IMG/VR virus record: IMGVR_UViG_2900261899_000001
Coordinates: 32,001 to 96,000 of that record
Length of the DNA stretch: 64,000 bases
Strand: one strand, 5' to 3'
Source of the DNA: a virus
Lineage: Duplodnaviria; Caudoviricetes
Every line of letters starts with the position of its first letter. Within the stretch, counting starts at the first letter, position 1. Below the pieces are notes generated by a model that was given only the letters and a program-made list of their open reading frames with translations, was not told the origin of the DNA and did not search any database. Positions 8,082-61,962 of this stretch are shown one piece after another. The translations under genes and the position numbers were made by a program.

Positions 8082-8326
8082 TAGTCGTCGTGCTCGGGCA
8101 CGTCACCGATTCTGGACAAGAATGTAGGCACCGTACACTCGTCTGATCTGTCGTCACTCGATGTTGAGAAAGCCAAGGCTCCGATGGCATGTCGCTGTTC
8201 GACGAGCCTTTCGGCGAGCCGTTTAGCGCTATCAGCTGTACTGCACATTTGGATTGGCGCGGTCTTGATCGGTCCGCGACCGGTTCGCACGAACGGTTGA
8301 ACGCCGAAACTCTGGGAACGCGCCAT
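8078..8326 (-). CDS. Small SOS-boxed hypothetical protein (related to 31119-31373)
   Basis: GGAG-type RBS; VQPF...A.RLAE....A.AF...GDVP pattern. Confidence 0.7.
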   Translation of the reverse strand: MARSQSFGVQPFVRTGRGPIKTAPIQMCSTADSAKRLAERLVEQRHAIGALAFSTSSDDRSDECTVPTFLSRIGDVPEHDDY

Positions 8327-8367
8327 CTGAAACTCCTCGTGGAGACCAGAAGCTGATCCTAAAAACG

Positions 8368-8382
8368 GAACGAAACAAGAAC
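8368..8382. promoter_or_regulatory. Alphaproteobacterial LexA (SOS) box
   Basis: GAAC-GAAACAA-GAAC. Confidence 0.75.
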
Positions 8383-8398
8383 AAAAGTGCGCTTTGGG

Positions 8399-8491
8399 TT
8401 ACGCATGCTGCGGCCCTGTGGATAACGGTGACGAAAAAATCTCGGACATGTTACGCATTTTGCGTTGACGTATATTACGCATTCGGCGTAA
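8399..8491. promoter_or_regulatory. Second operator cluster and early rightward promoter; includes a DnaA box
   Basis: TTACGCATTTTGCGTTG (8451-8467), TTACGCATTCGGCGTAA (8475-8491), weaker copy 8399-8415; TTGACG 8465-8470; TGTGGATAA 8417-8425. Confidence 0.75.
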
Positions 8492-8521
8492 CGTCTGGTC
8501 ATTCCGAAGCCGGAGCGACCG

Positions 8522-8809
8522 ATGTCCCAGAGCGCGCCGAACCCGAAGCCCCTTGCACCGCCGGACCGCCTCACGGCGTTCTTCGCGACACTCGACCGCC
8601 AGCTCGCCTTCCTCGCGCGGCCTGATCACCAGATCGACGAGCTGAACCTGCGCATCGCCCACAACGAGCGGTGCAAGAGCTACCTCTGCCGGGTCGGTTC
8701 GCAGAACTATGACGCCTTCGATCTGACCGCGATCGACGCCGGGCTCCACGGTCGGTTGGCCGATGCCATGGCGCGGCGCGACGCACCTGCGATGCAGGAG
8801 GCCGCATAG
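8522..8809 (+). CDS. Hypothetical early protein
   Basis: GGAG RBS; first gene after the operators. Confidence 0.65.
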   Translation: MSQSAPNPKPLAPPDRLTAFFATLDRQLAFLARPDHQIDELNLRIAHNERCKSYLCRVGSQNYDAFDLTAIDAGLHGRLADAMARRDAPAMQEAA

Positions 8810-9079
8810 ATGGCCACCCACACCTTCAAGACCCAACTGAAGCTCGGCTTTGGTGCCGGCCCGGCGATCCCGGTCGATCTGCTCCTGACCTACGATGTGG
8901 TCGACGGGACCGAGATCGATATCCTCTCGGCCACCGCCACCGGCAGCCCCCTGCCGGCGGGTATGCTCCGCCTGATCGAACTCTACCCCGGGCTCAAGAG
9001 CGAGCTTCTCGCGAAGGCGAGGCAGGATGCCGTCGACCGCCGCCGCAGCACGGTCCGGTCCCTCGCGAGGGCGGCATGA
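8810..9079 (+). CDS. Hypothetical early protein
   Basis: Abuts upstream stop; typical codon usage. Confidence 0.65.
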   Translation: MATHTFKTQLKLGFGAGPAIPVDLLLTYDVVDGTEIDILSATATGSPLPAGMLRLIELYPGLKSELLAKARQDAVDRRRSTVRSLARAA

Positions 9080-9238
9080 ACCCGCTCGCCGCCGTCTCCC
9101 TCTTCCTCGTCGGCACGATCGCGGTCGGGATGATCCTGATCCCGATCCTCGATGATCAGTATCGCCGCGCCGTCGACGCCTGGGCCAGCGCCCGGGTTCG
9201 CGCCGCCAACCCCGTGACCGTCGAGAGCGAGGCCGACC

Positions 9239-9463
9239 GTGGCTGATCTCCTCGACGACGCCACCGCCCTCCGCCTTGTCGCGGACGGCCGCAAGATCCC
9301 GAGGTCGAAGTTCACCTGCCTCGTGAAGCGCGGGCTGATCCGCCTGCGCGGGCACGGTGCCAAGACGCGGCCGGTGCTCACCGGCTCCGGCGAGGCAGCG
9401 CTCCGCACGGTCCGCCGCGCGGCGCGCCGGGCTCGGCCCGACGCCCACGCCCACCATCCCTGA
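9239..9463 (+). CDS. Small wHTH-like hypothetical protein
   Basis: LVKRGLI...VLTGSGEAAL. Confidence 0.5.
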   Translation: MADLLDDATALRLVADGRKIPRSKFTCLVKRGLIRLRGHGAKTRPVLTGSGEAALRTVRRAARRARPDAHAHHP

Positions 9464-28378: not shown

Positions 28379-29437
28379 ATGGCCGATATGCACCGCAAGC
28401 TCGACATCAACCTGTACGACACGCACATCGGCATCTGGCAGGACGATGCGAACGATCCTTCGTTCCAGAAAGAGATCTTCGGACCGCTCATCCGCCTGCT
28501 GCACGATCACGGCTGGGTCGTCCGAGCCGACGGTCTGACGCGCTACCGGTCCCTGCGGCCAAACTATCGCCTCGGATGGCGTGGCGACTTGCGGGTCGCG
28601 ATCCAAATCAGTGGGCGTTGCATTGAATTGGTTTTCTGGTCGGGGCTCGCCGAGCCGAGCAATCCGAACGGCCTCCGGTACGACTTCGACAAACGGAAGC
28701 GTGCCCCGTACCTCGACCGGGTCCGCATTGATCTGGAAACCCGGCGCATCCTCACATGGCTGCGCCAGCGCGCGGCGCTCACGATCTCGCCGCCGCGTCA
28801 CGTCCCATGCGGGATCGGTTTTGGTGAGATGAGCGCCGACACTTACATTGATCGATCGATCCGCTCATCCGGCCACTACGTGCCGGAACTCGGGCGCGCA
28901 CGCTTCTACAACGAGCCGCGCGAGCAGACGTCCGGGGACCGCCGGCAGCTCTCGCACGACTCCACCGTGTGGTTCCGCGACCGGAAAGGCCGCGTCCTGC
29001 GCGGGCGCGCCTTCTATAGCCTGGGTCAGAATTGGCTCGTCGCGGCGGGTCGCTGGGGCGTCTACCACGTCCAGCATTGGGATCTGTTCGTGGCGCCACC
29101 CGCGGACCTTCGCGGCAAGAGCAATGCGCGCGCGCGCCGCTCCCGCCTCGAGGGCGAGTTGACGAGGGCCTTGCGGCGCGACGACTACCGCCGCGCCGAG
29201 GTGCTGAAGCAGATCCTGTTCGGTAATGCCCCGATCTACCGGATCTGGTCGCGGAAGAACGACTGCTACTACGCGCCGAATTCGAGCGGCTACACGAGCG
29301 ACGCCTTAGGCGCCGGCCGGTACATGCGCGACGAGGCTGAGAGCGAGGTCCGTCGTGTCCCGCACATCCTCAGTTTGGTAACGCCGGATGGGCGACACCT
29401 CCGGGCGGAAGAACTCGATCAGGCGAAGGCCGCATGA
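28379..29437 (+). CDS. Hypothetical phage protein
   Basis: 352-aa ORF with AGGAG RBS. Confidence 0.75.
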   Translation: MADMHRKLDINLYDTHIGIWQDDANDPSFQKEIFGPLIRLLHDHGWVVRADGLTRYRSLRPNYRLGWRGDLRVAIQISGRCIELVFWSGLAEPSNPNGLRYDFDKRKRAPYLDRVRIDLETRRILTWLRQRAALTISPPRHVPCGIGFGEMSADTYIDRSIRSSGHYVPELGRARFYNEPREQTSGDRRQLSHDSTVWFRDRKGRVLRGRAFYSLGQNWLVAAGRWGVYHVQHWDLFVAPPADLRGKSNARARRSRLEGELTRALRRDDYRRAEVLKQILFGNAPIYRIWSRKNDCYYAPNSSGYTSDALGAGRYMRDEAESEVRRVPHILSLVTPDGRHLRAEELDQAKAA

Positions 29438-31958: not shown

Positions 31959-32606
31959 TCAGCCCGGAGGCTGGCCGCGTCCTGTGTCGAGAGCGTCGAT
32001 CCGGTGCTGCTGGCGATCGTTGAAAGCCCGGATGTGCTCATCGACGGAACCGCGAAGCATGCCGACGACCCGGTCCTGGGCCTCGAAGCGGCCGGTCAGC
32101 TCCGAGCGGGAGACGACGTTGTCCTCGAGGCGCTTCAGATCGGCGGCGAGCTGGTCGTTCCGCTTCTCGGCCCGCGCCTCGACCCGAGCGATGCGATCCC
32201 GCTGAAAGTCGTAGTCCCGCTCTTGGGCCCGCCAATGCAGTTCGTGCTCGGCACGAGTGACCTGGGTCGCCGCAACCTGCTCGGTCCGCTTATCGGCCCT
32301 ATCCTGCATGACCTGAAGGGCGGTCTTCAGATCGGACATGCCGGAGGTGAGCGGCCAGAAGGCCAACCCACCGACGACGGTAAGGACCGTTATACCGACG
32401 CCGACAGCTGACCAGATCACACCCCAGGGCGTCTGGCCCCGGCGATCGAGCTTGTCGCTCAAGCCAGTGACGGCCGAGGCGACGCTCTGCAGGGTGCCGA
32501 CAATGCCCTCGACCCGTGTTTCCAGCGCCGAGAGGCGGGAGTCGGAAGTCGGCTGCATCTGTTGCTGCTGCATCTGCTGAGGATGCTGGAAGGACTGCTG
32601 GGTCAT
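31959..32606 (-). CDS. Lysis-region membrane protein with coiled coils
   Basis: One TM segment flanked by coiled coils. Confidence 0.65.
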   Translation of the reverse strand: MTQQSFQHPQQMQQQQMQPTSDSRLSALETRVEGIVGTLQSVASAVTGLSDKLDRRGQTPWGVIWSAVGVGITVLTVVGGLAFWPLTSGMSDLKTALQVMQDRADKRTEQVAATQVTRAEHELHWRAQERDYDFQRDRIARVEARAEKRNDQLAADLKRLEDNVVSRSELTGRFEAQDRVVGMLRGSVDEHIRAFNDRQQHRIDALDTGRGQPPG

Positions 32607-41713: not shown

Positions 41714-42310
41714 TCAGATCCGGCAGATGAGAGGGGCGAAGCCGGTCATGGTGAACCGGTGGAAGTTGAGGTTCGGCGGCGCGAGCAGGTCGGCGTTGAG
41801 CGCCGTCACGGCGTCGATCTGAGCTTGCAGTTCGGCGACGCGTTGATCGGTGTAGGCGGTGTCCGTCGGACCCTGCGGACCGGTGGTCAGCGCCGGCAGC
41901 ACCACGCCCGAACCGGGCTGGCCGGCCACGAGGATCTGCGTGAAGGCCGCCTGCTGCCGAACCAGGGCGCTGTCGGTGGCCGGAAGAACCCGGACCGATG
42001 ACCGCCCGAGCCATTCGTCGATCGTCGACCCCGTCACCGTCCGGTGAACGTCGAACACGAGCGTCGTCGGGGTCGAAGCGAGCCAACCCCCGCGCGCCGC
42101 CTTCGGGACCGATAGGATGAGACTGTCCGTCAGCCCGTTCGTGTCCGCGATCCAGGTGATCGCACCGTTCGCACTATCGAGCGCCACGGCCTCGGGACCG
42201 CCGAAGCTGCCTGTCATCGTGGCCGTGAGCCGCGATCCCGTCAGGTTCAGGGGAACGACGAGTGGGACAATGACCCGCCAATCCGCGGTATCGAGGCATG
42301 TAGCGGGCAT
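41714..42310 (-). CDS. Tail-associated protein; its first 15 codons match array A
   Basis: 198-aa ORF in the fibre cluster. Confidence 0.7.
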   Translation of the reverse strand: MPATCLDTADWRVIVPLVVPLNLTGSRLTATMTGSFGGPEAVALDSANGAITWIADTNGLTDSLILSVPKAARGGWLASTPTTLVFDVHRTVTGSTIDEWLGRSSVRVLPATDSALVRQQAAFTQILVAGQPGSGVVLPALTTGPQGPTDTAYTDQRVAELQAQIDAVTALNADLLAPPNLNFHRFTMTGFAPLICRI

Positions 42311-42364
42311 GGAAGACCTTCAGATCGACTTGCTCCCGCAAGGGACCGGGAATACCGTCGTGAC

Positions 42365-42483
42365 TAGCGCGGCATGGCACGGCACCGTTCGGCGTGGCAT
42401 GGCGAGGCACGGCGCGGCGAGGCTGGGTCGGGTCTGGCGTGGCGTGGTAGGGGTGAAGAGGTCGGCGTGAGCCGGCCTTTTCC
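42365..42483 (+). ncRNA. GGY-NN pentamer array A (putative guide RNA)
   Basis: TAGC, 16 pentamers at 42371-42450 (15 begin GGC/GGT), then GGGTGAAGAG-GTCGGC-GTGA-GCCGGC-CTTTTCC. Confidence 0.8.
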
Positions 42484-42614
42484 GCTTTTTGGAGCTACCG
42501 ACCGTCGTCGCCCTGCCAGAGGGCCTGATCGGCCTGTGCGGGTCTGGACATGGTGGATCTCGCATGAACGACTGCGCGGGCGCGCGGGCGAATGCACTCG
42601 ATCCGAGCGCCGCT

Positions 42615-42931: not shown

Positions 42932-45130
42932 TTAACCAAAATTGCGGTCAACGAATTTGTTCGTTGCGCCTGAGTTGTCGATAATACCTCCGGTGACGAG
43001 GTTTCTGGCGCTATTCTCAGTCACCCAGAAGTAATCACCGCATCCAGAGTCTAAGCGAACGCCAAATCCCTGCTTGGCCCCAGGCTGAGAGAAGTCGACG
43101 TTGAACTTGTTGCGGCTGATGTGAAAATCGGCATTGCCAGAACCGCCCACGCGAACGCCGCCGCTGCCGTTAATCGAAATATTGCAACTTTCGATGTTGA
43201 AGTTTTTGTTGTTGTTGTTGACTGCAAAGCCAATGTTTCGGCTTGCGCCAATGTCGCAGCCTATGAACTTGAGGCCGTCAGTGCTGTCCATCTGCACGGC
43301 GTTGCCGCCATGGTTCCAAGACCAGCATCCGATGTACATGCTCTGTGCGATCTGCGAGAGCAGCATCCCCTCGTGCGACGTATCCCAGAATACGTTCGCA
43401 TAGCGGTTGTAGCCTGAGCACTGACCACGGGTGAGGCTCGGCGAGCCAATCGTCTTGGCATAGAGCCCGCCGATGAAATCGCCGTCGCTGAGGATGATGG
43501 CCTCGCAGGCCCCGACCTGTCGCAGAGAACCAAGGCTGAAGTCGTAATCAATTGAGCTGATGGTGCCGACGGCGCCTGATGTGTTGCCCGTCACCGTCGT
43601 GCCAGCGGCCAGCTGGTTCGGGATCAGCATTCGGTACTGCGATCCAGTGAGCTGGATGATGTTCAAGCCCGTGTAAGGCGAGCCGGAGATCGTCAGCCCC
43701 TCGCCGGCCTGGAATGTGCCGTTGACGCTTGAGAAGTTGATGGTGTCGCAGATTGAGGCAGTAACGAACTGCGAGAGGAACACGTCGTTTGAGTTCTCGA
43801 TGTAGACGGCGGTCTCTCGGCCGTCCGACACGCCGAAATCATAGCCACGGACGCCCGCACTGTTCTTGACTGATATGCCTCGGTAGGCGGTCGAGATGTT
43901 GATGTCGTTGAAGTAGCCCGACACCTGCATGTCGAGGGCAACGCCAGCGGTCGGGCGAACCGAGAGCGACACCGGCCCCATGTCGATCCCGGAGATGCGG
44001 GAGCCGGGAACGCCGGTGGTGCGGATGAAGTTGGTGGTTCCCGTCGACCAGCGCACGCGGGTGATCGCTCGGCCCCGGCCGACGAGGCTCTGCCCGCGGG
44101 TGGCCACCAGCGTACCGCCAGCCGCACGATACTCGCCGGCGCCCATCAGCCCGAGGCCATTGTTTACGAGGGCGTCGATCGCCTTCTGAGTGGCCGCGAT
44201 GCAGTCGGTCGTCGTGTTCTTGAAGCCGTGAAACCAATCGACTTCGCAGACCGCGAGCCCAGCGATGGAGCCACCGGCCGACAGGTCGAAGATCTGATAG
44301 GCACCTGCAGTCAGACCCGCCGTGAAGGTGACCGTGACGCCGTTGTCCGGCTTCAGCATCACGCCACGCGGGAAACGATAGTGAGCCGAGAGGGTGATGT
44401 TGGACGAAATCCGGATCGTGCCGGGCTTAAGTAGCCATTCCCCGAAGCCTTGAAGCGCATCGGCGAACGAAAGATTTGCGGCATCGTCGGCCGTACCATT
44501 AGCGACCAGATTATTGAGAACAGGCGCCTTGGCGGCCAGAGACGCGGCTGTCGCCGCAGCATCGGCTGCTCCAACGTCGCTGGCGATGAGATTTATTGAC
44601 GATCCGGATTTGCCATTGACCGTCGTCGGATTGCCTTGAGGCCCTTGCAGGCCCGCAGCGCCAGTGGCGCCTTGCGGTCCTTGCGCGCCCTGTGCTCCAG
44701 CCGCGCCGGCAGGCCCTCGAATTTGGCCGACGTTGTGCCAGTTGCCGCCGGGGCCGGCGTCGTTGCCGGAGGCGGTGTAGACGTAGCCGTCGCCGCTGGA
44801 ATAGCCGGTCCCGTTCGACGTCATCAGGTAGACGTCGCCAAGCGTGTTGCCGGACGACGGAAGGTCCGAGGGGGTAGCCCGCGATCCTTTGATCGTCGTT
44901 CCCGCGCCTTGGTCGCCCTTCGGGCCAGGGTCGCCCTTCGGGCCAGGGTTGCCCTGCTGGCCGGGGTTGCCGCGCTCGCCACGCTCGCCCTGCAGACCGC
45001 GTTCGCCCTGGCCACCGGGCAAACCGGGGGCACCGGCGCCCCCAGGGAGGCCGCGTAGGCCCGGGGCGCCGCCGCCGAGCACGACCTGAGGCACGACGCC
45101 CGCGGAGGACGCGCCCAACACGTACGGCAT
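42932..45130 (-). CDS. Tail fibre/spike: collagen repeats plus beta-helix domain
   Basis: G-X-Y runs, WHNVGQIRGPAG, pectate-lyase-like repeats, GC drops toward the C-terminus. Confidence 0.82.
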   Translation of the reverse strand: MPYVLGASSAGVVPQVVLGGGAPGLRGLPGGAGAPGLPGGQGERGLQGERGERGNPGQQGNPGPKGDPGPKGDQGAGTTIKGSRATPSDLPSSGNTLGDVYLMTSNGTGYSSGDGYVYTASGNDAGPGGNWHNVGQIRGPAGAAGAQGAQGPQGATGAAGLQGPQGNPTTVNGKSGSSINLIASDVGAADAAATAASLAAKAPVLNNLVANGTADDAANLSFADALQGFGEWLLKPGTIRISSNITLSAHYRFPRGVMLKPDNGVTVTFTAGLTAGAYQIFDLSAGGSIAGLAVCEVDWFHGFKNTTTDCIAATQKAIDALVNNGLGLMGAGEYRAAGGTLVATRGQSLVGRGRAITRVRWSTGTTNFIRTTGVPGSRISGIDMGPVSLSVRPTAGVALDMQVSGYFNDINISTAYRGISVKNSAGVRGYDFGVSDGRETAVYIENSNDVFLSQFVTASICDTINFSSVNGTFQAGEGLTISGSPYTGLNIIQLTGSQYRMLIPNQLAAGTTVTGNTSGAVGTISSIDYDFSLGSLRQVGACEAIILSDGDFIGGLYAKTIGSPSLTRGQCSGYNRYANVFWDTSHEGMLLSQIAQSMYIGCWSWNHGGNAVQMDSTDGLKFIGCDIGASRNIGFAVNNNNKNFNIESCNISINGSGGVRVGGSGNADFHISRNKFNVDFSQPGAKQGFGVRLDSGCGDYFWVTENSARNLVTGGIIDNSGATNKFVDRNFG

Positions 45131-55239: not shown

Positions 55240-55276
55240 ATGTGTGGTGCAACGAAGTCATGGACATGAAGAAAAT

Positions 55277-55371
55277 GGAAAAGGCCGGCGCGAGCCAGCC
55301 CTTTCACCCTTGCCTCGCCTCAACAAACCCCGCCCCGCGGTACCCCGCCTTGGCCGGCCGTGCCTTAGCTA
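55277..55371 (-). ncRNA. GGY-NN pentamer array B (putative guide RNA)
   Basis: Minus strand: TAGC-TAA, 11 pentamers at 55364-55310 (8 GGY), then GGGTGAAAG-GGCTGGC-TCGC-GCCGGCC-TTTTCC. Confidence 0.78.
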
Positions 55372-55456: not shown

Positions 55457-57976
55457 TCAGGCTAGGACGCGACCGCCGTACCCTACCGGCGTTTTCAGCG
55501 TCGAATCGTCGAACGAACCGGTCCCGTTTCTCGTGTTCGCTTCGGCGACCTGATGGTGCGTCACGGACCGACCGACCGTGCGGCCGTCGAGATGCACCGA
55601 GCTGGCAACCTGGATCGGGGCGGAACGCCCCTTGTAGATCAGGGAGCTCGATTTGCCGGGTGTCGCACCGCCACCGCCACCGCCGCCGGACGCGCCGCTT
55701 CCGAGATCGGCGCCGCCCGCCGGTTTGGCGCTTGCGCTTCCGATCGCGGCACGAGCAGCAGCCGCTACCCCGCCGATCCAACCCGCAAGCGCGTTCAGCG
55801 GGCCGCCAGCGCCTTGCGCCGCTTGCCCCGCCTTCTGAGCGCCAGACGCAGCCTCATTGAGCGTGGAGACCGCACCAGCTGCCGTAGACGCGAGCCGCTG
55901 CTTGGCCGCTTCGATATTCTCCGTCGAAAGGCCCAGCCCTTCGGTGCCGATGTGACGCCGCGGGTTTTCACCACCGCCCGTCATGAATCCGTCGGGACCG
56001 CCGAACTCGAATGGCGTGGTACTTTTTCGGCGCTGCTCGGATAGAGTGTCGGCAAGTTTGCGAGCTGGCTCGCCTGCGATCTTATCCCACGGAAGCGTGA
56101 CGGCGGCGATGGTGACAGCCGCACCGGCACCGACAGCCAGCGCTGGAAGGCTGAGCGTGCCGACGGCGGCAATAGCTAGTGCTGCAATACCCGCAGCTGC
56201 CGCACCACCGACAACAGCGGCCGTGGCGCCCATCGCCGTCTCGGCTGCGACTGGATGCTTCTCTAGTGTGTTTGCCACGCCTCCAAGCGCTGCGTTCAAG
56301 CGGTTAAGGTTGTCGACAAGGTTTGGGATTGCTGGCTCCGAGAGTGCGGTCGCCACTGCGCCGCCCTGCGATTTGGTGCCCTGCAGAGCCGCATAGGGGT
56401 CGTCGCGCCTATAGGCCGTGGTATCGCCGGAAGTCTTATCGTACCCGGCGAAGTCTTTTTCGATCTTACTTTTTTGCTGCGCCAATTCGAACAAAAATCC
56501 GTAGGCGTTCTTGTCGGTAAAAATTTTACCGAGGGTACGAAGCAGATCGGTCTTGTCATCAGTATTGACGCCACCCGCTTTGAGCTTCGGAATGACGTTG
56601 TTGTAAAGCCATAGATCCGGGTCCTTGGCCCGGTCATAAGTTTTTCCGTCCAAGCCCACATCTGAAAATTGAGCACCCGGCTGGACTAACGTGTGTTTCT
56701 TGTTCCAAGTGACAGTTGGTTCTTGAAGAAGATTATATTTGTAGGCTTCAGTGAGCCCCGAGCCCAGCATACGCAAGCCACCGACACCCTTTGCCGCGAA
56801 GGTCGCGAACTGGGTACCGGCGCGCTGTCCAATTTCCTGCGAAAGCGCCGCGAAGGCGCCGTAGCGAAAGTGGTCGCTGGTCAGATTTAGCATCTGACCG
56901 CCGTTTTTCTGTGCGGTAAAGTAGTTCGATGGGTTGAGCTTGTCGCCGTACCAGAAGGCCAACCTCATCAGCGAGTTGGCGTGCTTCTTGACCCCCTCCG
57001 AGGTAATCTCGTTAGCTGTTTCAGCCGATTTCACGGCCGTGTAAATCTCGTTTACAGCGTTCTTAGCGCCGTGATTGCCGGCTTTGGCCTTCAGTGCCGA
57101 GAACTCTGGTAGCAATTCTGGCGCTTCGTGAATTGCTTTGTCGATGTCGCCAAGAATACCGCGGAGATCGTTGATGTGCTCGAAGATCTCGACAGGGGAT
57201 AGATTAGGAAATTGTTGCGAACCCTTATATGAAAGTTCCTTGGCATGATCGATCTGCGCTGGGCTAGCTCCGGTCTGCCGCATGCCGAGTTCAATGTGGC
57301 GCATATCGACGCCGGTCTCGATGACCTCAGAGAGCGTATGGACCCCGCCGGAGACCCCAATGACGCTTGCAAGTGCCGAGCCTTCATGGCCGACGAGACC
57401 ATGCGTTCCGTGACTGCGCCGGCCATGCCCCCTGCCACGCGTGGCGCGCCCGGCACCGGTGCCAGCGCCCCCGGCCCCGCCGCCACCCCGGACGGGCGTT
57501 GGCAAGTTCACATTGCTCGCGGCTGACTGCAGGCGACGCATGGCGCCGGCCGCCGAATTGATCCGGCTCGTCCAACCCGAGATCGACTGCGTGACACCCC
57601 GCGCCGCTGAAGCGACGCCTTGGGTCTCGCGGCGCATGACGCGCATCTCGGCGATGGGCTTGCCGATGGCGCTGGCCCAGCGCTGCATTTCACGGTCCAG
57701 ACCGTTGCCACCCTTCAAGCCAGACATGGCACGCGAGATCCGCGCGACCTCGCGCTCGATCTTTTGGCCGGCGGAGGAGGACTTCGACAGTTCGCGGTTC
57801 AGTTGGCCGGCGGCGGACGCAGCGCGGTTCAGGGGCGAGACCCAGCGACCGAACGATTTCTCAACGGATTTGGTTTTAGAGTCGACATCGCTCAGGGTCT
57901 TGAGCAGGCGCGTCATCTCGGGCACGAGATTGCCCGCGAGCGTCATGCTCGTCTGGATGCGATACACGTCGCTCAC
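55457..57976 (-). CDS. Tail tape measure protein
   Basis: 839 aa, helical and Ala/Gly-rich, VHLDGRTVG near end; position in tail operon. Confidence 0.85.
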   Translation of the reverse strand: MSDVYRIQTSMTLAGNLVPEMTRLLKTLSDVDSKTKSVEKSFGRWVSPLNRAASAAGQLNRELSKSSSAGQKIEREVARISRAMSGLKGGNGLDREMQRWASAIGKPIAEMRVMRRETQGVASAARGVTQSISGWTSRINSAAGAMRRLQSAASNVNLPTPVRGGGGAGGAGTGAGRATRGRGHGRRSHGTHGLVGHEGSALASVIGVSGGVHTLSEVIETGVDMRHIELGMRQTGASPAQIDHAKELSYKGSQQFPNLSPVEIFEHINDLRGILGDIDKAIHEAPELLPEFSALKAKAGNHGAKNAVNEIYTAVKSAETANEITSEGVKKHANSLMRLAFWYGDKLNPSNYFTAQKNGGQMLNLTSDHFRYGAFAALSQEIGQRAGTQFATFAAKGVGGLRMLGSGLTEAYKYNLLQEPTVTWNKKHTLVQPGAQFSDVGLDGKTYDRAKDPDLWLYNNVIPKLKAGGVNTDDKTDLLRTLGKIFTDKNAYGFLFELAQQKSKIEKDFAGYDKTSGDTTAYRRDDPYAALQGTKSQGGAVATALSEPAIPNLVDNLNRLNAALGGVANTLEKHPVAAETAMGATAAVVGGAAAAGIAALAIAAVGTLSLPALAVGAGAAVTIAAVTLPWDKIAGEPARKLADTLSEQRRKSTTPFEFGGPDGFMTGGGENPRRHIGTEGLGLSTENIEAAKQRLASTAAGAVSTLNEAASGAQKAGQAAQGAGGPLNALAGWIGGVAAAARAAIGSASAKPAGGADLGSGASGGGGGGGATPGKSSSLIYKGRSAPIQVASSVHLDGRTVGRSVTHHQVAEANTRNGTGSFDDSTLKTPVGYGGRVLA

Positions 57977-57997
57977 GGCGTACCCCGGGGAGAAGTC

Positions 57998-58444
57998 ATG
58001 AAGGGGTTATGGCTCGCCGTTCTTGCGGCGATCATACTGGCGCCCCCAGCGGCCGCGCAGACCCAGCAGGGCTGGGCGCAATGCCGTACCGTTGCGGACA
58101 GCCTGGAGCGGCTGAAATGCTTCGATGGTCTTGGGCCCGCGCCGGTGGCGCAGGTGGGTGCCTACGAGAAAATGACCTTGATCGATTGGAAGACCGACAA
58201 GGCATCGCTACAAGGAAAAAAGGTCGAGGTCGAAGGTCTCGCCATGCCGTTTGCCGGCGGAGCGCTGCTGTCGATCCAAGCGGGCGATGTCAGTCCGGTC
58301 TTCCTTGATGTCGAGCGCGTGCCGCGGGATCAACGCAGGCGGCTTCTAGGCTGCTCGCCTATGTGCCGATTGTCGGTGCAGGGTAGCGGTGGCACGGTAC
58401 AATATCAGCAGGGTATCATCGCCGATACTTTGAGTTTCCGCTAA
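57998..58444 (+). CDS. Secreted protein (moron)
   Basis: Signal peptide, C...D..ERL.CFD motif, OB-fold-like tail. Confidence 0.7.
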   Translation: MKGLWLAVLAAIILAPPAAAQTQQGWAQCRTVADSLERLKCFDGLGPAPVAQVGAYEKMTLIDWKTDKASLQGKKVEVEGLAMPFAGGALLSIQAGDVSPVFLDVERVPRDQRRRLLGCSPMCRLSVQGSGGTVQYQQGIIADTLSFR

Positions 58445-58521
58445 TTTATTAGTCAGACGACTAACATTAAAGTCTTAGCGGATCACCCGATGCCCTGGCT
58501 GCGGCAATGGACGGAAATGAA

Positions 58522-59028
58522 TTATCGAGGCGGAAACAACAAAAGCGTCAAAAAGGCCGTTTTGCTATCTTCGCTAGCGGCCTCAAGCCCGGTCAACGCC
58601 GACTTTGCAATAAGAATAAAGTGCTCGACTTCTGACACAGTTAAGACGTGTGATGGGTCATAATCGGCTAGCATACGCTGTTCATATAGGTCAATAAATG
58701 CGTCGGCGTACCCGGTTATTTGCGCATCAAATCCGCCTGCCGGCCAATACCTGCTGTATTTCTGGCTTGGATTCTGCTTTTTTATTTCAACACAAAGAGA
58801 CCTCATTTTGCCGTGATCTATTGATCTGTAAGCCAAGCTATAAAGGCTGCTGCCTCTTTTATCCTCTCCGACGGACTGGTCGGCGGCCGCCTTCAGACCG
58901 GCATGGAACACGGCATAATAGGTAGCCGATACTGCTCTACATCTGTCAGCCAAGCGCGGTCGTTCCTGCCCAGGCAGCACAGCGAGCAGGCGTTCGGCCT
59001 GCTCAACCAAATGTGCGGGTTCGATCAC
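58522..59028 (-). CDS. HEPN (UPF0332-like) protein
   Basis: RAVSATYYAVFH, RMLADYDP. Confidence 0.75.
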   Translation of the reverse strand: MIEPAHLVEQAERLLAVLPGQERPRLADRCRAVSATYYAVFHAGLKAAADQSVGEDKRGSSLYSLAYRSIDHGKMRSLCVEIKKQNPSQKYSRYWPAGGFDAQITGYADAFIDLYEQRMLADYDPSHVLTVSEVEHFILIAKSALTGLEAASEDSKTAFLTLLLFPPR

Positions 59029-59317
59029 GCTGAAGCTCTATCCAATCTTCCATTCGGGCAAAGCTAACTAGTGGCACACGGTCCTCACCGGCCCTGTGTA
59101 ACTCGCTTTTCATCCTACTGATGATATTGAGCAGTTGTGTTCCTCCAAAGTCGTCGGCGTTTGCCTCTGGGTACACAATAGTTATTTTGAGCGCATCGGA
59201 CCCATCGGATGTTTGAGCGCCCGCTATTGCTGTCGATATTGGGACAAACTTACCCAAAACATCCCGAGATGTTTCCTTCGCCAGTCTTGATATTTCACCT
59301 AAATCTAGCCGCATCAC
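59003..59317 (-). CDS. HEPN partner (MNT-like)
   Basis: Overlaps the HEPN gene; DGSDALKITIV, P.VSF. Confidence 0.55.
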   Translation of the reverse strand: MMRLDLGEISRLAKETSRDVLGKFVPISTAIAGAQTSDGSDALKITIVYPEANADDFGGTQLLNIISRMKSELHRAGEDRVPLVSFARMEDWIELQRDRTRTFG

Positions 59318-59325
59318 CGCATGCC

Positions 59326-59580
59326 TCAGCCCTGTATTCCCAGGACGGGCGCCTTCAGCCGGACGCCCGGCCCCCCGCCGTTCTCTGCGATGAACTCGAG
59401 CCCAGCCTCCGCAAGCGCTTTCTCAACCTTTGCCAGATTGTCGGTGATAGCCTTGGGAACCCCCTCGCTCTCCTCCATCCGTTTGATTGTTGCGGGGGAC
59501 ACCCCAGAGGTATCCGCTAAATCCCTTACGGACCACCGAAGGTAGCCGCGTGCCATCCGAATCTGGGCCCCGGTGACCAT
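59326..59580 (-). CDS. XRE HTH repressor
   Basis: TGAQIRMARGYLRWSVRDLA..SGVS..TIKRME, ENGGGPGVRL. Confidence 0.88.
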   Translation of the reverse strand: MVTGAQIRMARGYLRWSVRDLADTSGVSPATIKRMEESEGVPKAITDNLAKVEKALAEAGLEFIAENGGGPGVRLKAPVLGIQG

Positions 59581-59611
59581 AAAAGCTAAATGACCCATAT
59601 TTGGTCTAGCG

Positions 59612-59659
59612 TGAGCTAAATTGGTTGACACGGGCGCCTCCATGAGCCAATTTAGCTCA
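59612..59659. promoter_or_regulatory. Operator pair and promoter of the cassette leading to HNH + RAMP-like gene
   Basis: TGAGCTAAATTGGTTGA (59612-59628) and inverted near-copy TGAGCCAATTTAGCTCA (59643-59659); TTGACA 59625-59630. Confidence 0.65.
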
Positions 59660-60051
59660 TGGCCGCTGCAAATGAAAGCGACCTTACCACTAAGAGGATC
59701 GCGCCGATGCCCGTGAATGCAAAGATCCCCACCCCCCTGCGCGCAAACATCATGGCCAGGGCCTGGGAGTTATTCCGCAAGCGCTACAATTACCCCCGCA
59801 CCCCGTTCCGTTCGATCGGCCGCGCATGTTTCGCGTCGGCTCTAAAAGCCGCGTGGGCGGAAGCCCGTGAGACTGTTCGTCTTGTCGGTTTCGGGGCCGA
59901 TGCCCTGAGGCGCTCTATCGAGGCACTTTCCTCTCCGGCTCACGCGGTAGGCCTTTCCTCAAGCTACGCGCTTGGCCCTCAGGCCGCGATGGAGCGGTAT
60001 CAACAAAAGCTCGCTTTAACGGCCGCCCTGAACTTCGCGATTGCGGCTTGA
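59659..60051 (+). CDS. Hypothetical protein
   Basis: IMARAW...FASALKAAWAEA. Confidence 0.6.
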   Translation: MAAANESDLTTKRIAPMPVNAKIPTPLRANIMARAWELFRKRYNYPRTPFRSIGRACFASALKAAWAEARETVRLVGFGADALRRSIEALSSPAHAVGLSSSYALGPQAAMERYQQKLALTAALNFAIAA

Positions 60052-60062
60052 GGGAGGGAGCT

Positions 60063-60560
60063 ATGCAAAATCGGAGAGCAATCCTCACGGCCCTTATTGC
60101 GGTACCGCTGACTGGGCCGTTGTGTGCGGGTCAGCCTCATCTTGACGCGGCCCTGCTCGACCTCGGCAGGCGCTTCGATGCCGCCGTGGCGGCGCACAAA
60201 GCCCACGTCCGGGCCTACTTCGCGGCTGACGAGGCCCATACCCAGGCGCTCCAGGCCGCTAAGTCGGCTGGGCGGTTCAAGGGGCTCGACGCTGAAGCCT
60301 ACGCAGCGCTCCACTCGCAGCTAATTGAGCCGTTCAACGCGGCGCTAGAGAGGGACGACGAACTCCACGACGCCTGCGGCAAGCTGGGCGAGCAAATCAT
60401 CGCGATCCAACCCAAGACTCTGGATGGAATCGCTGTTCTTGCCCGTGTCTGCCAGTTCGAATCGCGGCAGGCCTGGGAAGCGCCGAAGAGCCGCGAGTAC
60501 GATGAGGACGTCCTCGTTGCCCTCGTCGACGGCATCTTGGCCGTGGCCGCTACGGCGTGA
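60063..60560 (+). CDS. Hypothetical helical protein
   Basis: GGAG RBS; DAALLDLG, PKTLDGI.V.AR. Confidence 0.65.
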   Translation: MQNRRAILTALIAVPLTGPLCAGQPHLDAALLDLGRRFDAAVAAHKAHVRAYFAADEAHTQALQAAKSAGRFKGLDAEAYAALHSQLIEPFNAALERDDELHDACGKLGEQIIAIQPKTLDGIAVLARVCQFESRQAWEAPKSREYDEDVLVALVDGILAVAATA

Positions 60561-61000
60561 CCTACGAGGAATACCTTGCATCCCCACGATGGGCCGAGCT
60601 GCGCCGGCTGAGGCTAGCCCTCGACGGATTCCGCTGCCGGGGCTGCGATACCGCCGACAATCTTGAGGTTCACCACCGGCGCTACGGCACCCCGCTGGGC
60701 AGCGAGACGGTCGACGACCTGACGACGCTCTGTGGCGGCCCCGAGGGCTGCCACCACGCGATCACCACCATCATCCGCCGCCGCCTGTACGCGACCCGTC
60801 AGTATGACGTGACCGCAGTCGCTCGGCTGGCCCCCGGCAATCTGGAGAAGAACGATGTCCCAGGACTACGAGCGTTTAAGATTTCGGCTCACCGGCGTGT
60901 CGCCCCTGGTCATGCACAACGGTCGCTTGGCGAACCCGCTGGACTCGTTTGCGAAGGCGCTGAAGGCGGTCTCGGGAAAGCGCGGCAAGACGGACGCTGA
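60557..61000 (+). CDS. HNH endonuclease
   Basis: YEEYLASPRW, CRGC...LEVHHRRY...LTTLC....CH. Confidence 0.85.
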   Translation: MTYEEYLASPRWAELRRLRLALDGFRCRGCDTADNLEVHHRRYGTPLGSETVDDLTTLCGGPEGCHHAITTIIRRRLYATRQYDVTAVARLAPGNLEKNDVPGLRAFKISAHRRVAPGHAQRSLGEPAGLVCEGAEGGLGKARQDGR

Positions 61001-61430
61001 CTTCGAGGAGATGGCCCGTATCGAGTTCCTGGGCGGCCTCTATGTCGGCGACGATGGTCCTTGCATCCCCGGCGAATTGATCGAAGCGGTCCTGATCGCG
61101 GCGGCCAAAAAGAACAAGCGCGGCATGCAGGCCAAGGCCGGCATCCTTTCGGACGGCAACCACCGGGTCGAGTACCACGGCCCCAGAGGGGCAGAGGAGC
61201 TGTGGGCGGACGACCGCTTCCGCCTCGTTGCCGGCGTTCGTGTCGGACAGGCCCGTGTGATGCGGACCCGCCCGATCTTTCGGGAGTGGTCGTCAGAAAT
61301 CTTCGTTGACTTCCTGCCGGGTCAATTGAACCGGGCGGACGTCGCGGGAATGGTTAGAACCGCAGGCACCATCGTCGGCATCGGCGATTGGAGGCCGCGG
61401 TTTGGAAGGTTCACAGTGGAGACGCTGTGA
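60855..61430 (+). CDS. Stand-alone RAMP/Cas7-like protein
   Basis: LTGVSPLVMH start, PCIPGELIEAVL, Gly-rich C-terminal loop GIGDWRPRFGRF; GGAG RBS at 60844. Confidence 0.7.
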   Translation: MSQDYERLRFRLTGVSPLVMHNGRLANPLDSFAKALKAVSGKRGKTDADFEEMARIEFLGGLYVGDDGPCIPGELIEAVLIAAAKKNKRGMQAKAGILSDGNHRVEYHGPRGAEELWADDRFRLVAGVRVGQARVMRTRPIFREWSSEIFVDFLPGQLNRADVAGMVRTAGTIVGIGDWRPRFGRFTVETL

Positions 61431-61521
61431 TAGCCCGGTAGGGCAAGGCGGGTCGCGGCATGCCTCGGCAAGGCGTGGTTCGGTAGGGGTGAAAAGGGCC
61501 GGCTTTCGCCGGCCCTTTTCC
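61431..61521 (+). ncRNA. GGY-NN pentamer array C (putative guide RNA) with terminator hairpin
   Basis: TAGC, 10 pentamers at 61437-61486 (8 GGY), then GGGTGAAAAGGGCCGGC-TTTC-GCCGGCCCTTTTCC. Confidence 0.8.
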
Positions 61522-61524
61522 ACA

Positions 61525-61962
61525 TCAGCGGTTTGTCGCTCCGCTCAGGTGCCGGAACACGGCTTCGCCGAGGATGCGGTGAACCTCGCCCTCCTTGCGG
61601 ACAGCAGCTGTCTTCAGGACCGGGCGAGGCGGGATCCCGCGGGAGGTTCCCAACTCCTGCCACGTCGCCTTCGGATCGTCGGACCCCACGGCGGCTTCGT
61701 GGTCGCTCACAACGGTGCGCGCGTAGGCATCGCGCATGGCGCCGGTTTCGAGCAGTGGGCTATCGCCCGTGGCTTTTCGAGCCACGGTCTCGCTCTGCAA
61801 GGCTGGCCACCCGGGTTGGTAGGTCCCGGGCAGCCGCTTTGCCTCATCGAGAACGACCTCCGAAGCTTGTTCGAGCCCGCGGCGTTGAGCGGCCGGCAGG
61901 GTAGCGACGCGGCCGCGCATAAAGCCGACGAACGCACCGATCGACGAGAACGTGCGCGCCAT
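61525..61962 (-). CDS. HK97 gp10-like tail component
   Basis: PLLETGAMRD, ELGTSRGIPPRPVL. Confidence 0.82.
   Translation of the reverse strand: MARTFSSIGAFVGFMRGRVATLPAAQRRGLEQASEVVLDEAKRLPGTYQPGWPALQSETVARKATGDSPLLETGAMRDAYARTVVSDHEAAVGSDDPKATWQELGTSRGIPPRPVLKTAAVRKEGEVHRILGEAVFRHLSGATNR

Follow-up and report, generated by a model that had tools for sequence, protein, structure and literature searches.

VIPR is an RNA-guided DNA-silencing system described in 2026 (10.64898/2026.04.26.720920). According to the available text of that preprint, the minimal RAMP protein Vipr polymerises on an RNA of ~100 nt, the vrRNA, which is built of 9-16 YNNGG units and a 3' tail. Vipr buries each GGY motif and presents the two variable bases (NN), which pair with double-stranded DNA (dsDNA) in such a way that every third target base is skipped; perturbation of the GGY motif abolished silencing. 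The natural targets named there are rival phages, prophages and satellites, and targets were found for 20 of 41 vrRNAs of the SUSP1 clade, 44 of 63 of type III and 23 of 39 of type V. Internal degeneracy of the arrays is described as frequent, and the source contigs are reported to hold no self-targeting match at ≥80% of NN. Here we describe a VIPR locus in a stretch of 64,000 nucleotides from a virus (Duplodnaviria; Caudoviricetes), positions 32,001 to 96,000 of IMG/VR record IMGVR_UViG_2900261899_000001; this whole stretch is hereafter called the window. Directly after its vipr gene lies a vrRNA array, array C, whose guide matched nothing above chance level in any search that we made. We consider it probable that array C still serves, or served until recently, as a vrRNA against a rival element that is absent from the collections searched.

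A Vipr homologue followed by a vrRNA array

The gene immediately upstream of array C encodes a protein of 191 amino acids (aa). A tblastn search with this protein matched 136 phage records, including those of Felixounavirus, Gordonia, Mycobacterium and Pseudomonas phages. In the genome of Escherichia phage SUSP1 (NC_028808) it gave a single match (28495-29055, minus strand; 37% identity, E 6.9e-34), and BLASTP against the SUSP1 Vipr itself gave 36% identity over 187 aa (E 1e-41). Around the SUSP1 gene we found one array upstream, a second gene of 146 aa and three arrays downstream, a layout that agrees with the description in the available part of the preprint (10.64898/2026.04.26.720920). A Pfam scan of the window protein returned no match. 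Its AlphaFold2 model (pLDDT 93.6, pTM 0.86) gave 31 Foldseek matches to the PDB at E ≤ 0.001, those listed being Csm3/Cas7-type or Cas6 RAMP chains of CRISPR complexes (TM 0.3-0.55), and a C-terminal G-rich loop, GIGDWRPRFGRF, is visible in the sequence.

The residues that would hold the RNA are also present. In its accessible text, a structural preprint assigns the contacts with GGY and the skipped bases to H17, K33, E71, R138, D177, W178 and R179 of Vipr (10.64898/2026.04.26.720927). By our own count on the BLASTP pairwise alignment these correspond to H21, K37, E74, R139, D178, W179 and R180 of the window protein, a mapping that uses an inferred numbering offset of five codons; T175, which is named in the same preprint, reads V in the SUSP1 ORF. 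R139, W179 and R180 do not vary among 39 homologues, and at least 90% of these keep H21, D178 and E74; K37 is present in the window protein but outside the listed conserved columns.

Of 20 loci examined, 19 have period-5 GG arrays next to the vipr homologue (L001-L004, L011-L017, L019-L023, L078 and both copies in this genome, with L014-L016 near-identical to one another), and the exception, L024, holds a partial gene only. The four phage loci that we fetched all carry such an array beside a gene of phrog_4652. As judged from sequence and predicted structure, the homology to SUSP1 Vipr, the fold and the GGY-contact residues identify the 191-aa protein as a genuine Vipr and array C as the vrRNA of a prophage VIPR system. 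The initial annotation, which had called the gene RAMP-like, was thus right in kind, and the gapped code that it proposed, with NN standing for two bases out of each target triplet, is the same as the published one-nucleotide-skip rule. The locus is surrounded by genes for baseplate J, a gpV/gpD-like hub, tape-measure, tail-fibre, tail-completion and endolysin proteins, pointing to a proviral location.

Array C begins 4 nt after the stop codon TGA (61428-61430) of ORF 60855-61430. Its guide tract on the plus strand (61435-61489) can be read as 11 NNGGY pentamers, namely CCGGT, AGGGC, AAGGC, GGGTC, GCGGC, ATGCC, TCGGC, AAGGC, GTGGT, TCGGT and AGGGG. The GGY is canonical in nine of them; unit 4 has GTC and unit 6 GCC, and both variants are also present in the orthologous array of the related locus L011. 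The NN differ from those of the orthologous arrays in L011, L019 and L020, whereas the GGY and the tail are kept. On re-reading, the NN string given earlier (CC AG AA GG GC AT TC AA GT TC AG) proved exact, and the end assigned to the array at that time, 61521, falls inside the tail.

The sequence AGGGG or AAGGG followed by TGAA is common to array C, its two siblings A and B, and two arrays of L011. Because this element recurs, unit 11 (AG GGG) probably belongs to the tail, which leaves ten dinucleotides as the guide. The A[AG]GGGTGAA box and the hairpin behind it are found in five arrays, and the fold predicted from their alignment (five sequences) contains 15 base pairs, of which 6 show compensatory changes. 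vrRNA C itself folds with a minimum free energy of -52.4 kcal/mol (z -3.7), and none of 200 shuffled sequences folded equally well. Its length of about 91-93 nt agrees with the ~100 nt of the published vrRNAs. A simple terminator scan did not call the tail hairpin, since its T run is only four T long, and an Rfam gathering scan of the window returned 0 families.

Such arrays are rare in the genome. On both strands of its 4.64 Mb, GGY at a period of 5 in at least 8 of 10 consecutive units occurs in only two places, array A (10) and array C (8). Relaxing this to at least 7 of 10 gives five places, against 0, 2 and 2 at control periods of 4, 7 and 8, none of which has a place at the stricter setting. 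At a period of 6, codon periodicity raises the counts.

The sibling arrays and the one-nucleotide-skip code

Two further arrays with the same tail, A and B, lie in the window, and a fourth is on another contig of the genome. The guides of A and B, like that of array C, were scored under the published one-nucleotide-skip code (NNx), with guides of permuted NN order, the reversed pattern or other skip rules as nulls.

The guide of array B (AA AC CG AA GG AC GG GG TT GA GA) has a unique best match in the genome, with 19 of 22 NN bases (86%); it lies in the 3' end of the phage's tape-measure gene, and 170 nt separate it from the array downstream. None of 30 permuted guides reached 19. Among the mismatches at this site are a Ser-for-Gly codon and an arginine codon, AGA for CGN, that is synonymous. 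In the genus the array B pattern was found in six places, compared with none for the reversed-pattern control; five of the six lie in other genomes, and two of these are orthologous tape-measure C-termini (DTRNGTGGFDS and DTRNGTQGFDD). The tape-measure sites in the related prophages G065:C55 and G090:C45 score 19/22 each. These matches to tape-measure 3' ends indicate that the one-nucleotide-skip code holds in this prophage and that the genus search is able to find targets. With 86% on its own contig, array B is a borderline exception to the absence of self matches at ≥80% that is reported in the available text on VIPR.

Array A gave a best genome match of 23/32 on the minus strand (42267-42313), covering the start codon and first codons (MPATCLDTADWRVIV) of the gene at 41714-42310 on the minus strand, 56 nt away. 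By our own count its last ten units match this gene start at 17 of 20 bases; the first six, among which is one broken GGY (CGT), match poorly. The score is not significant alone, being reached by 8 of 30 permuted guides, and it is the neighbouring position that stands out.

From the positions of the best matches of arrays A and B, the vrRNAs of this prophage might each stand next to a gene and act against the versions of it that rivals carry. We regard such a rule as unlikely. If true, it would mean that guides are made from, or co-evolve with, the phage's neighbouring sequence, amounting to allelic exclusion among sibling prophages, and array C, which has no match of this kind, would be aimed at a rival cassette or gene in the competitors' gp10/tape-measure gap, a variable 'moron' slot.

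The fourth array lies on contig C2, directly after a paralogue of the vipr gene. This second VIPR locus (C2:132833-133520; L025/L006) encodes a protein with 42% identity to the window Vipr, and the 3' end of the gene runs into the opening pentamers of the array that follows it. The C2 array shows a 1-nt phase shift after the third unit and has a differing tail hairpin (GACGCCCGAG...CTCGGGCGTC). No HNH homologue was found beside the paralogue by tblastn.

The target of array C

Within the window, an exhaustive scan of both strands gave array C a best score of 15/22 (68%), where the best scores of 300 permuted guides averaged 15.3 (sd 0.67); the window holds no array C target above null level. 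This agrees with the initial annotation, which had seen no convincing target in the regions that it inspected and reported two weak alignments of about half the bases. Under NNx these score 11/22 (61568-61599) and 12/22 (57984-57953, minus strand). In the whole genome the best score was 18/22, which 10 of 40 permuted guides also reached, and the top matches fall in unrelated genes. Skip rules of 0 and 2 gave 17/22 for the same guide, and a rule of 3 recovered only the array itself. The contig that carries the prophage, C32, has no match at ≥16/22, and the lack of a self match at ≥80% agrees with what the accessible text reports for published VIPR (10.64898/2026.04.26.720920).

Beyond the own genome, mismatch-tolerant searches covered 146 genomes of the genus and 401 of a family sample, all species representatives, and the large collections were scanned for exact sub-patterns. 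In the 146 genus genomes the 11-unit pattern at ≤3 mismatches gave two places versus one for the reversed control, both in unrelated, non-phage-looking contexts. The family sample, which spans 53 genera with only 17 genomes of the host genus besides the own, gave nine places for the 10-unit pattern at ≤2 mismatches versus none for the control. These lie in unrelated contexts, and one (in G408) has a single mismatch; a rough expectation under uniform composition is ~5 places at ≤2 mismatches and ~0.2 at ≤1.

Six scans were made of viral contigs, for exact NN2-10, exact NN1-9 and NN1-10 with NN4, NN5, NN6 or NN7 wildcarded. Exact NN2-10 gave one match, on a giant-virus contig from a metagenome-assembled genome (MAG) with 37% G+C, and exact NN1-9 gave none. 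With NN4, NN5 or NN7 wildcarded there were 0 matches each. The NN6 wildcard gave one (20/22), in an 89-aa hypothetical ORF on a 315-kb contig of 50% G+C, which we judged to be chance; neither match was judged to lie in a plausible rival of this phage. In the species-genome collection exact NN1-10 matched once (21/22); the gene concerned is chromosomal and acyltransferase-like and belongs to a gammaproteobacterial MAG, and ~1 such match is expected by chance. Metagenome contigs gave 42 loci for exact NN2-10, belonging by our own count to about 19 lineages.

The initial annotation had offered three places for the target. A more diverged relative found no support, as the regions of four relatives (75.7 kb) gave at best 15/20, and 19 fetched loci (83 kb; vipr-family loci together with two loci of tape-measure matches) at best 14/20, both at null level. 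An empty-site junction fared no better and is taken up with the cassette below. A site outside the window is what the published system leads one to expect, but the genus, family, viral, genome-collection and metagenome scans produced no place above chance. Rival vipr genes or vrRNA loci were also rejected as the target: they reached 14/20, the mode of the null, in the same fetched loci, and among 120 Vipr-family proteins at most 6 of 10 residues fit either reading of the guide. Altogether, no guide-to-rival match at ≥80% of NN under the one-nucleotide skip rises above chance for array C; array B has one (19/22, in two related prophages).

The same annotation had proposed a gapped-pattern search of replicon, host and related phages, and held that the lack of any significant hit would suggest a degenerate guide or weaken the code. 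The search has been run on the genome, the relatives and the collections, and the clause about the code is too strong, because array B validates the code in the same prophage and because only part of the published guides have targets, as far as the available text lists them (10.64898/2026.04.26.720920). Indeed, by those figures a guide with no identifiable target is ordinary for VIPR.

We therefore return to the reading given at the outset, that array C is probably a working or recently working vrRNA whose target lies in an unsampled rival. On this reading array C is probably transcribed together with vipr or just after it, as an RNA of ~90 nt. By analogy with the preprints' accounts, in so far as these are available, Vipr protomers would polymerise along it, one per pentamer, burying GGY and presenting NN; the NN would pair with dsDNA with third target bases skipped, and the bound DNA would be silenced. 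The overlapping HNH gene described below might add cleavage. The guide would read CCxAGxAAxGGxGCxATxTCxAAxGTxTC, which has no target in the own window or genome, and the target would most likely be in a rival phage, prophage or satellite that shares the host genus, beyond the collections searched. That such an element exists is our own inference.

Several points weigh against this. No target has been found, and the unsampled rival is argued from the known behaviour of the family. Two of the 11 GGY motifs of array C are broken, and in the published work, as far as its text is available, changing GGY abolished silencing (10.64898/2026.04.26.720920). For arrays A and B a near-match is found in an adjoining gene, but array C has none within 1.8 kb and so differs from its siblings. 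Finally, the tolerance for mismatches was limited to the 146 and 401 species-representative genomes, the large collections having been read through exact sub-patterns.

These points bear most directly on a second reading, which we consider unlikely but ahead of the other alternatives: array C may be a decaying or non-targeting vrRNA that can still load Vipr, with a guide that matches nothing now or never did. Such an array could persist because it forms the 3' end and terminator of the vipr mRNA, or because it competes for the loading of Vipr, and an accessible part of a further preprint describes vrRNAs able to act by competing for or redirecting Vipr (10.64898/2026.10.15.759431). The broken motifs, the chance-level outcome of every array C search and the missing near-match in an adjacent gene would all be as expected. 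However, the tail is intact and well folded and nine of 11 units are canonical. The GTC and GCC variants recur in the orthologous array of L011, which suggests that they are tolerated, and degenerate units are frequent in published arrays (10.64898/2026.04.26.720920), of whose guides, in the text available, a third to a half likewise have no identifiable target.

Another reading takes the metagenome matches at face value. In 17 of the 42 loci the guide matches antisense to the stretch coding for DLETFDIAPFL in genes of PAS/HisKA_2-HWE sensor histidine kinases, with the skipped bases at wobble positions; 11 of these loci score 21/22 and six 20/22, so that array C might silence a chromosomal kinase. 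We think this very improbable. All 17 loci represent one protein lineage, and hence one event, among the ~19 lineages of the 42 loci, and we estimate that ~1 lineage at ≥21/22 is expected by chance among matches with perfect NN2-10. The kinases are named for Phenylobacterium, Caulobacter, Roseiarcus and Micropepsaceae rather than the host genus, and they stand in a chromosomal gene context. Moreover, no such match occurred in the 146 genus genomes (≤3 mismatches), in the 401-genome sample (≤2) or among the own-genome matches at ≥16/22. Under a code that does not read wobble positions, a conserved motif that happens to match will do so throughout its protein family, and we treat the cluster as chance. 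The matching loci fall within L027-L067, for example L049 at 8163-9365. A second protein family with the same wobble effect was seen in four loci (...W(R/N)(F/Y)ET(F/L)DIAPFL...).

This behaviour has a consequence for target assignment in general. With 10-11 dinucleotides a guide has no more than 20-22 bases of information, and collections of terabase size are expected to hold near-perfect matches by chance. They multiply in conserved protein families because wobble positions are skipped, and conserved protein motifs can thereby inflate apparent 'convergent' target matches. With chance matches so common in large collections, targets can be called only within the host's own mobilome and against permuted-guide controls.

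It is no less improbable that array C is not a guide at all, but a repeated protein-binding site or a G-rich element of the 3' untranslated region (UTR) that serves termination or mRNA stability. The idea came initially from TRAP, which binds 11 (G/U)AG repeats, and array C has 11 triplets spaced by 2 nt directly before a terminator-like hairpin; its GG-N3 spacing could also form G-quadruplexes. Yet the adjoining protein is homologous to an experimentally characterised Vipr with the GGY-binding residues conserved, and the NN of array B spell a gene segment of related phages under NNx, which a spacer-only model does not predict. A TRAP-like, ring-protein or G-quadruplex 3' UTR element was dropped as a candidate after the Vipr homology and the array B result.

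The cassette and its place among known systems

The locus belongs to a 3.5-kb cassette of VIPR genes, a helix-turn-helix (HTH) gene and small ORFs (Table 1). In the cassette-less relative G090:C45 (locus L085, 11129-11807) the gp10-like gene (72% identity) is followed by 259 nt and then the tape-measure gene, and by this comparison the cassette appears as an insertion. That the guide recognises the empty gp10-like/tape-measure junction of such relatives, in a homing-like partnership with the HNH gene, would suit both the insertion and the presence of an HNH ORF in the locus, but it is the least probable reading that we considered, the junction of one cassette-less relative giving at best 12/22 (11-unit pattern) or 11/20 (10-unit pattern) and the window's own flanks 11-12/22.

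Between the HNH-type ORF and vipr, which are read in different frames, there is an overlap of 146 nt. Upstream of vipr in the relatives G023 and G110 this ORF recurs with an identical overlap, and it aligns there over its full length (63% and 64% identity). The conservation of both overlap and alignment suggests a real overlapping gene pair, in which HNH would be the accessory gene of this clade. In all four phage loci fetched, vipr is instead partnered by phrog_5926 (vap1-like). A search of the own genome for this family gave no match, although the control genomes of that search had none either.

Other ORFs of the cassette include a weak HEPN-like one (58522-59028; Pfam E 0.0035), the HTH gene (59326-59643) and small ORFs with no assigned function. 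Farther off, a tail-fibre-like gene on the minus strand (42932-45130) encodes a collagen triple helix close to the N-terminus (Pfam Collagen, E 7.5e-9), and the DNA of this region holds an 18-nt tandem repeat of 3.4 copies (44911-44971).

Table 1. Features of the VIPR locus and its sibling arrays, in window coordinates
Feature	Position	Strand	Remarks
vipr, 191-aa stand-alone RAMP/Cas7-like protein	60855..61430	+	phrog_4652, E 1e-52; SUSP1 homology; predicted fold
HNH-type ORF, 147 aa, candidate vap gene	60557..61000	+	PHROG HNH endonuclease families, best E 1.3e-6; no Pfam match
vrRNA C, guide tract and tail	61431..61523	+	~91-93 nt, vipr stop codon to hairpin end
Array C guide tract, 10 YNNGG units	61435..61484	+	NN = CC AG AA GG GC AT TC AA GT TC
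Array C tail: AGGGGTGAA box, 12-15 bp hairpin, TTTTCC	61485..61523	+	conserved box and fold
Array A, sibling vrRNA, 16-17 units, same tail	42369..42488 (guide tract 42369-42453)	+	18.4 kb from vipr
Array B, sibling vrRNA, 11-12 units, same tail	55272..55366 (guide tract 55366-55307)	-	~90 nt past tape-measure stop
Array B near-self site, tape-measure 3' end, codons NTRNGTGSFDD	55506..55537	-	19/22 NN match
Cassette, 3.5 kb: VIPR locus, HTH gene, small ORFs	57977..61524		between tape-measure and gp10-like/tail-completion genes

How does this locus compare with what has been described? One comparison is with the backbone of class 1 CRISPR systems (Cas7/Csm3). The window Vipr shares with it the RRM/RAMP fold, a glycine-rich loop and a thumb, and its top structural matches are Csm3/Cas7 chains (TM 0.4-0.55). 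In the available accounts both place one protomer per short RNA period, with flipped bases (10.64898/2026.04.26.720920; 10.64898/2026.04.26.720927). In contrast, the VIPR period is 5 nt with two informative bases, against 6 nt with five, and dsDNA is read with gaps. Nor is there a repeat-spacer array here. Tandem Repeats Finder found in the window no array with a period of 20-50 nt beyond short repeats of 2-3 copies, no dedicated CRISPR finder having been run, and no cas gene was named among 36 ORFs (32.7-64 kb) scanned against Pfam and PHROG.

Another is with the solo or orphan vrRNAs of the third VIPR preprint, as its accessible text describes them (10.64898/2026.10.15.759431). Like these, arrays A and B stand apart from vipr yet carry the tail of their cognate system, and some of the published guides, including decoys against host REP elements, also have no obvious phage target. 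However, 'solo' is defined there as no Vipr on the contig or within 20 kb, whereas arrays A, B and C lie within 19 kb of vipr. Array C also differs from the decoy type: no match to it recurs in many copies in the host genome, and the number of sites at 14-16/20 resembles that of the skip-0 and skip-2 controls.

VIPR types III-V offer a parallel for the gene arrangement. Systems of these types carry predicted nucleases or helicases, some VIPR systems encode one vrRNA, and HNH is listed among the Vap domains in a legend (10.64898/2026.04.26.720920). On the strength of this preprint's text, in the parts available, the HNH-type ORF, a candidate accessory gene, and the single vrRNA beside vipr liken the present locus to them. 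Types III and V differ in that they are described as residing mainly in chromosomal defence islands, whereas the cassette lies in a prophage tail operon.

A further close counterpart is VIPR type II of phage SUSP1, from which the locus departs in several respects. The genome has no phrog_5926 match and has the overlapping HNH ORF upstream of vipr instead. One vrRNA lies beside vipr here, with two more 5.5 and 18.4 kb off in the tail-gene module. The array C tail consists of a simple hairpin and TTTTCC, as opposed to the pseudoknot described in the accessible text for the SUSP1 clade (10.64898/2026.04.26.720920), and the host is an alphaproteobacterium of 67.6% G+C; homologues are named Methylobacterium and Microvirga. 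The likeness to the published type II is nonetheless close, as far as its description is available: the system is phage-borne, its Vipr is homologous (36-37% identity over residues 7-190) with the RAMP fold, and its vrRNA is of the YNNGG kind, with conserved GGY, variable NN, a number of units within the published 9-16 and a conserved 3' tail. The one-nucleotide-skip code is shared as well, in silico, for the sibling array B. The published VIPR system thus already accounts for this case, which is a new example rather than a new system; what it adds is an alphaproteobacterial prophage with an HNH gene overlapping vipr, a hairpin tail and vrRNAs dispersed in the tail operon.

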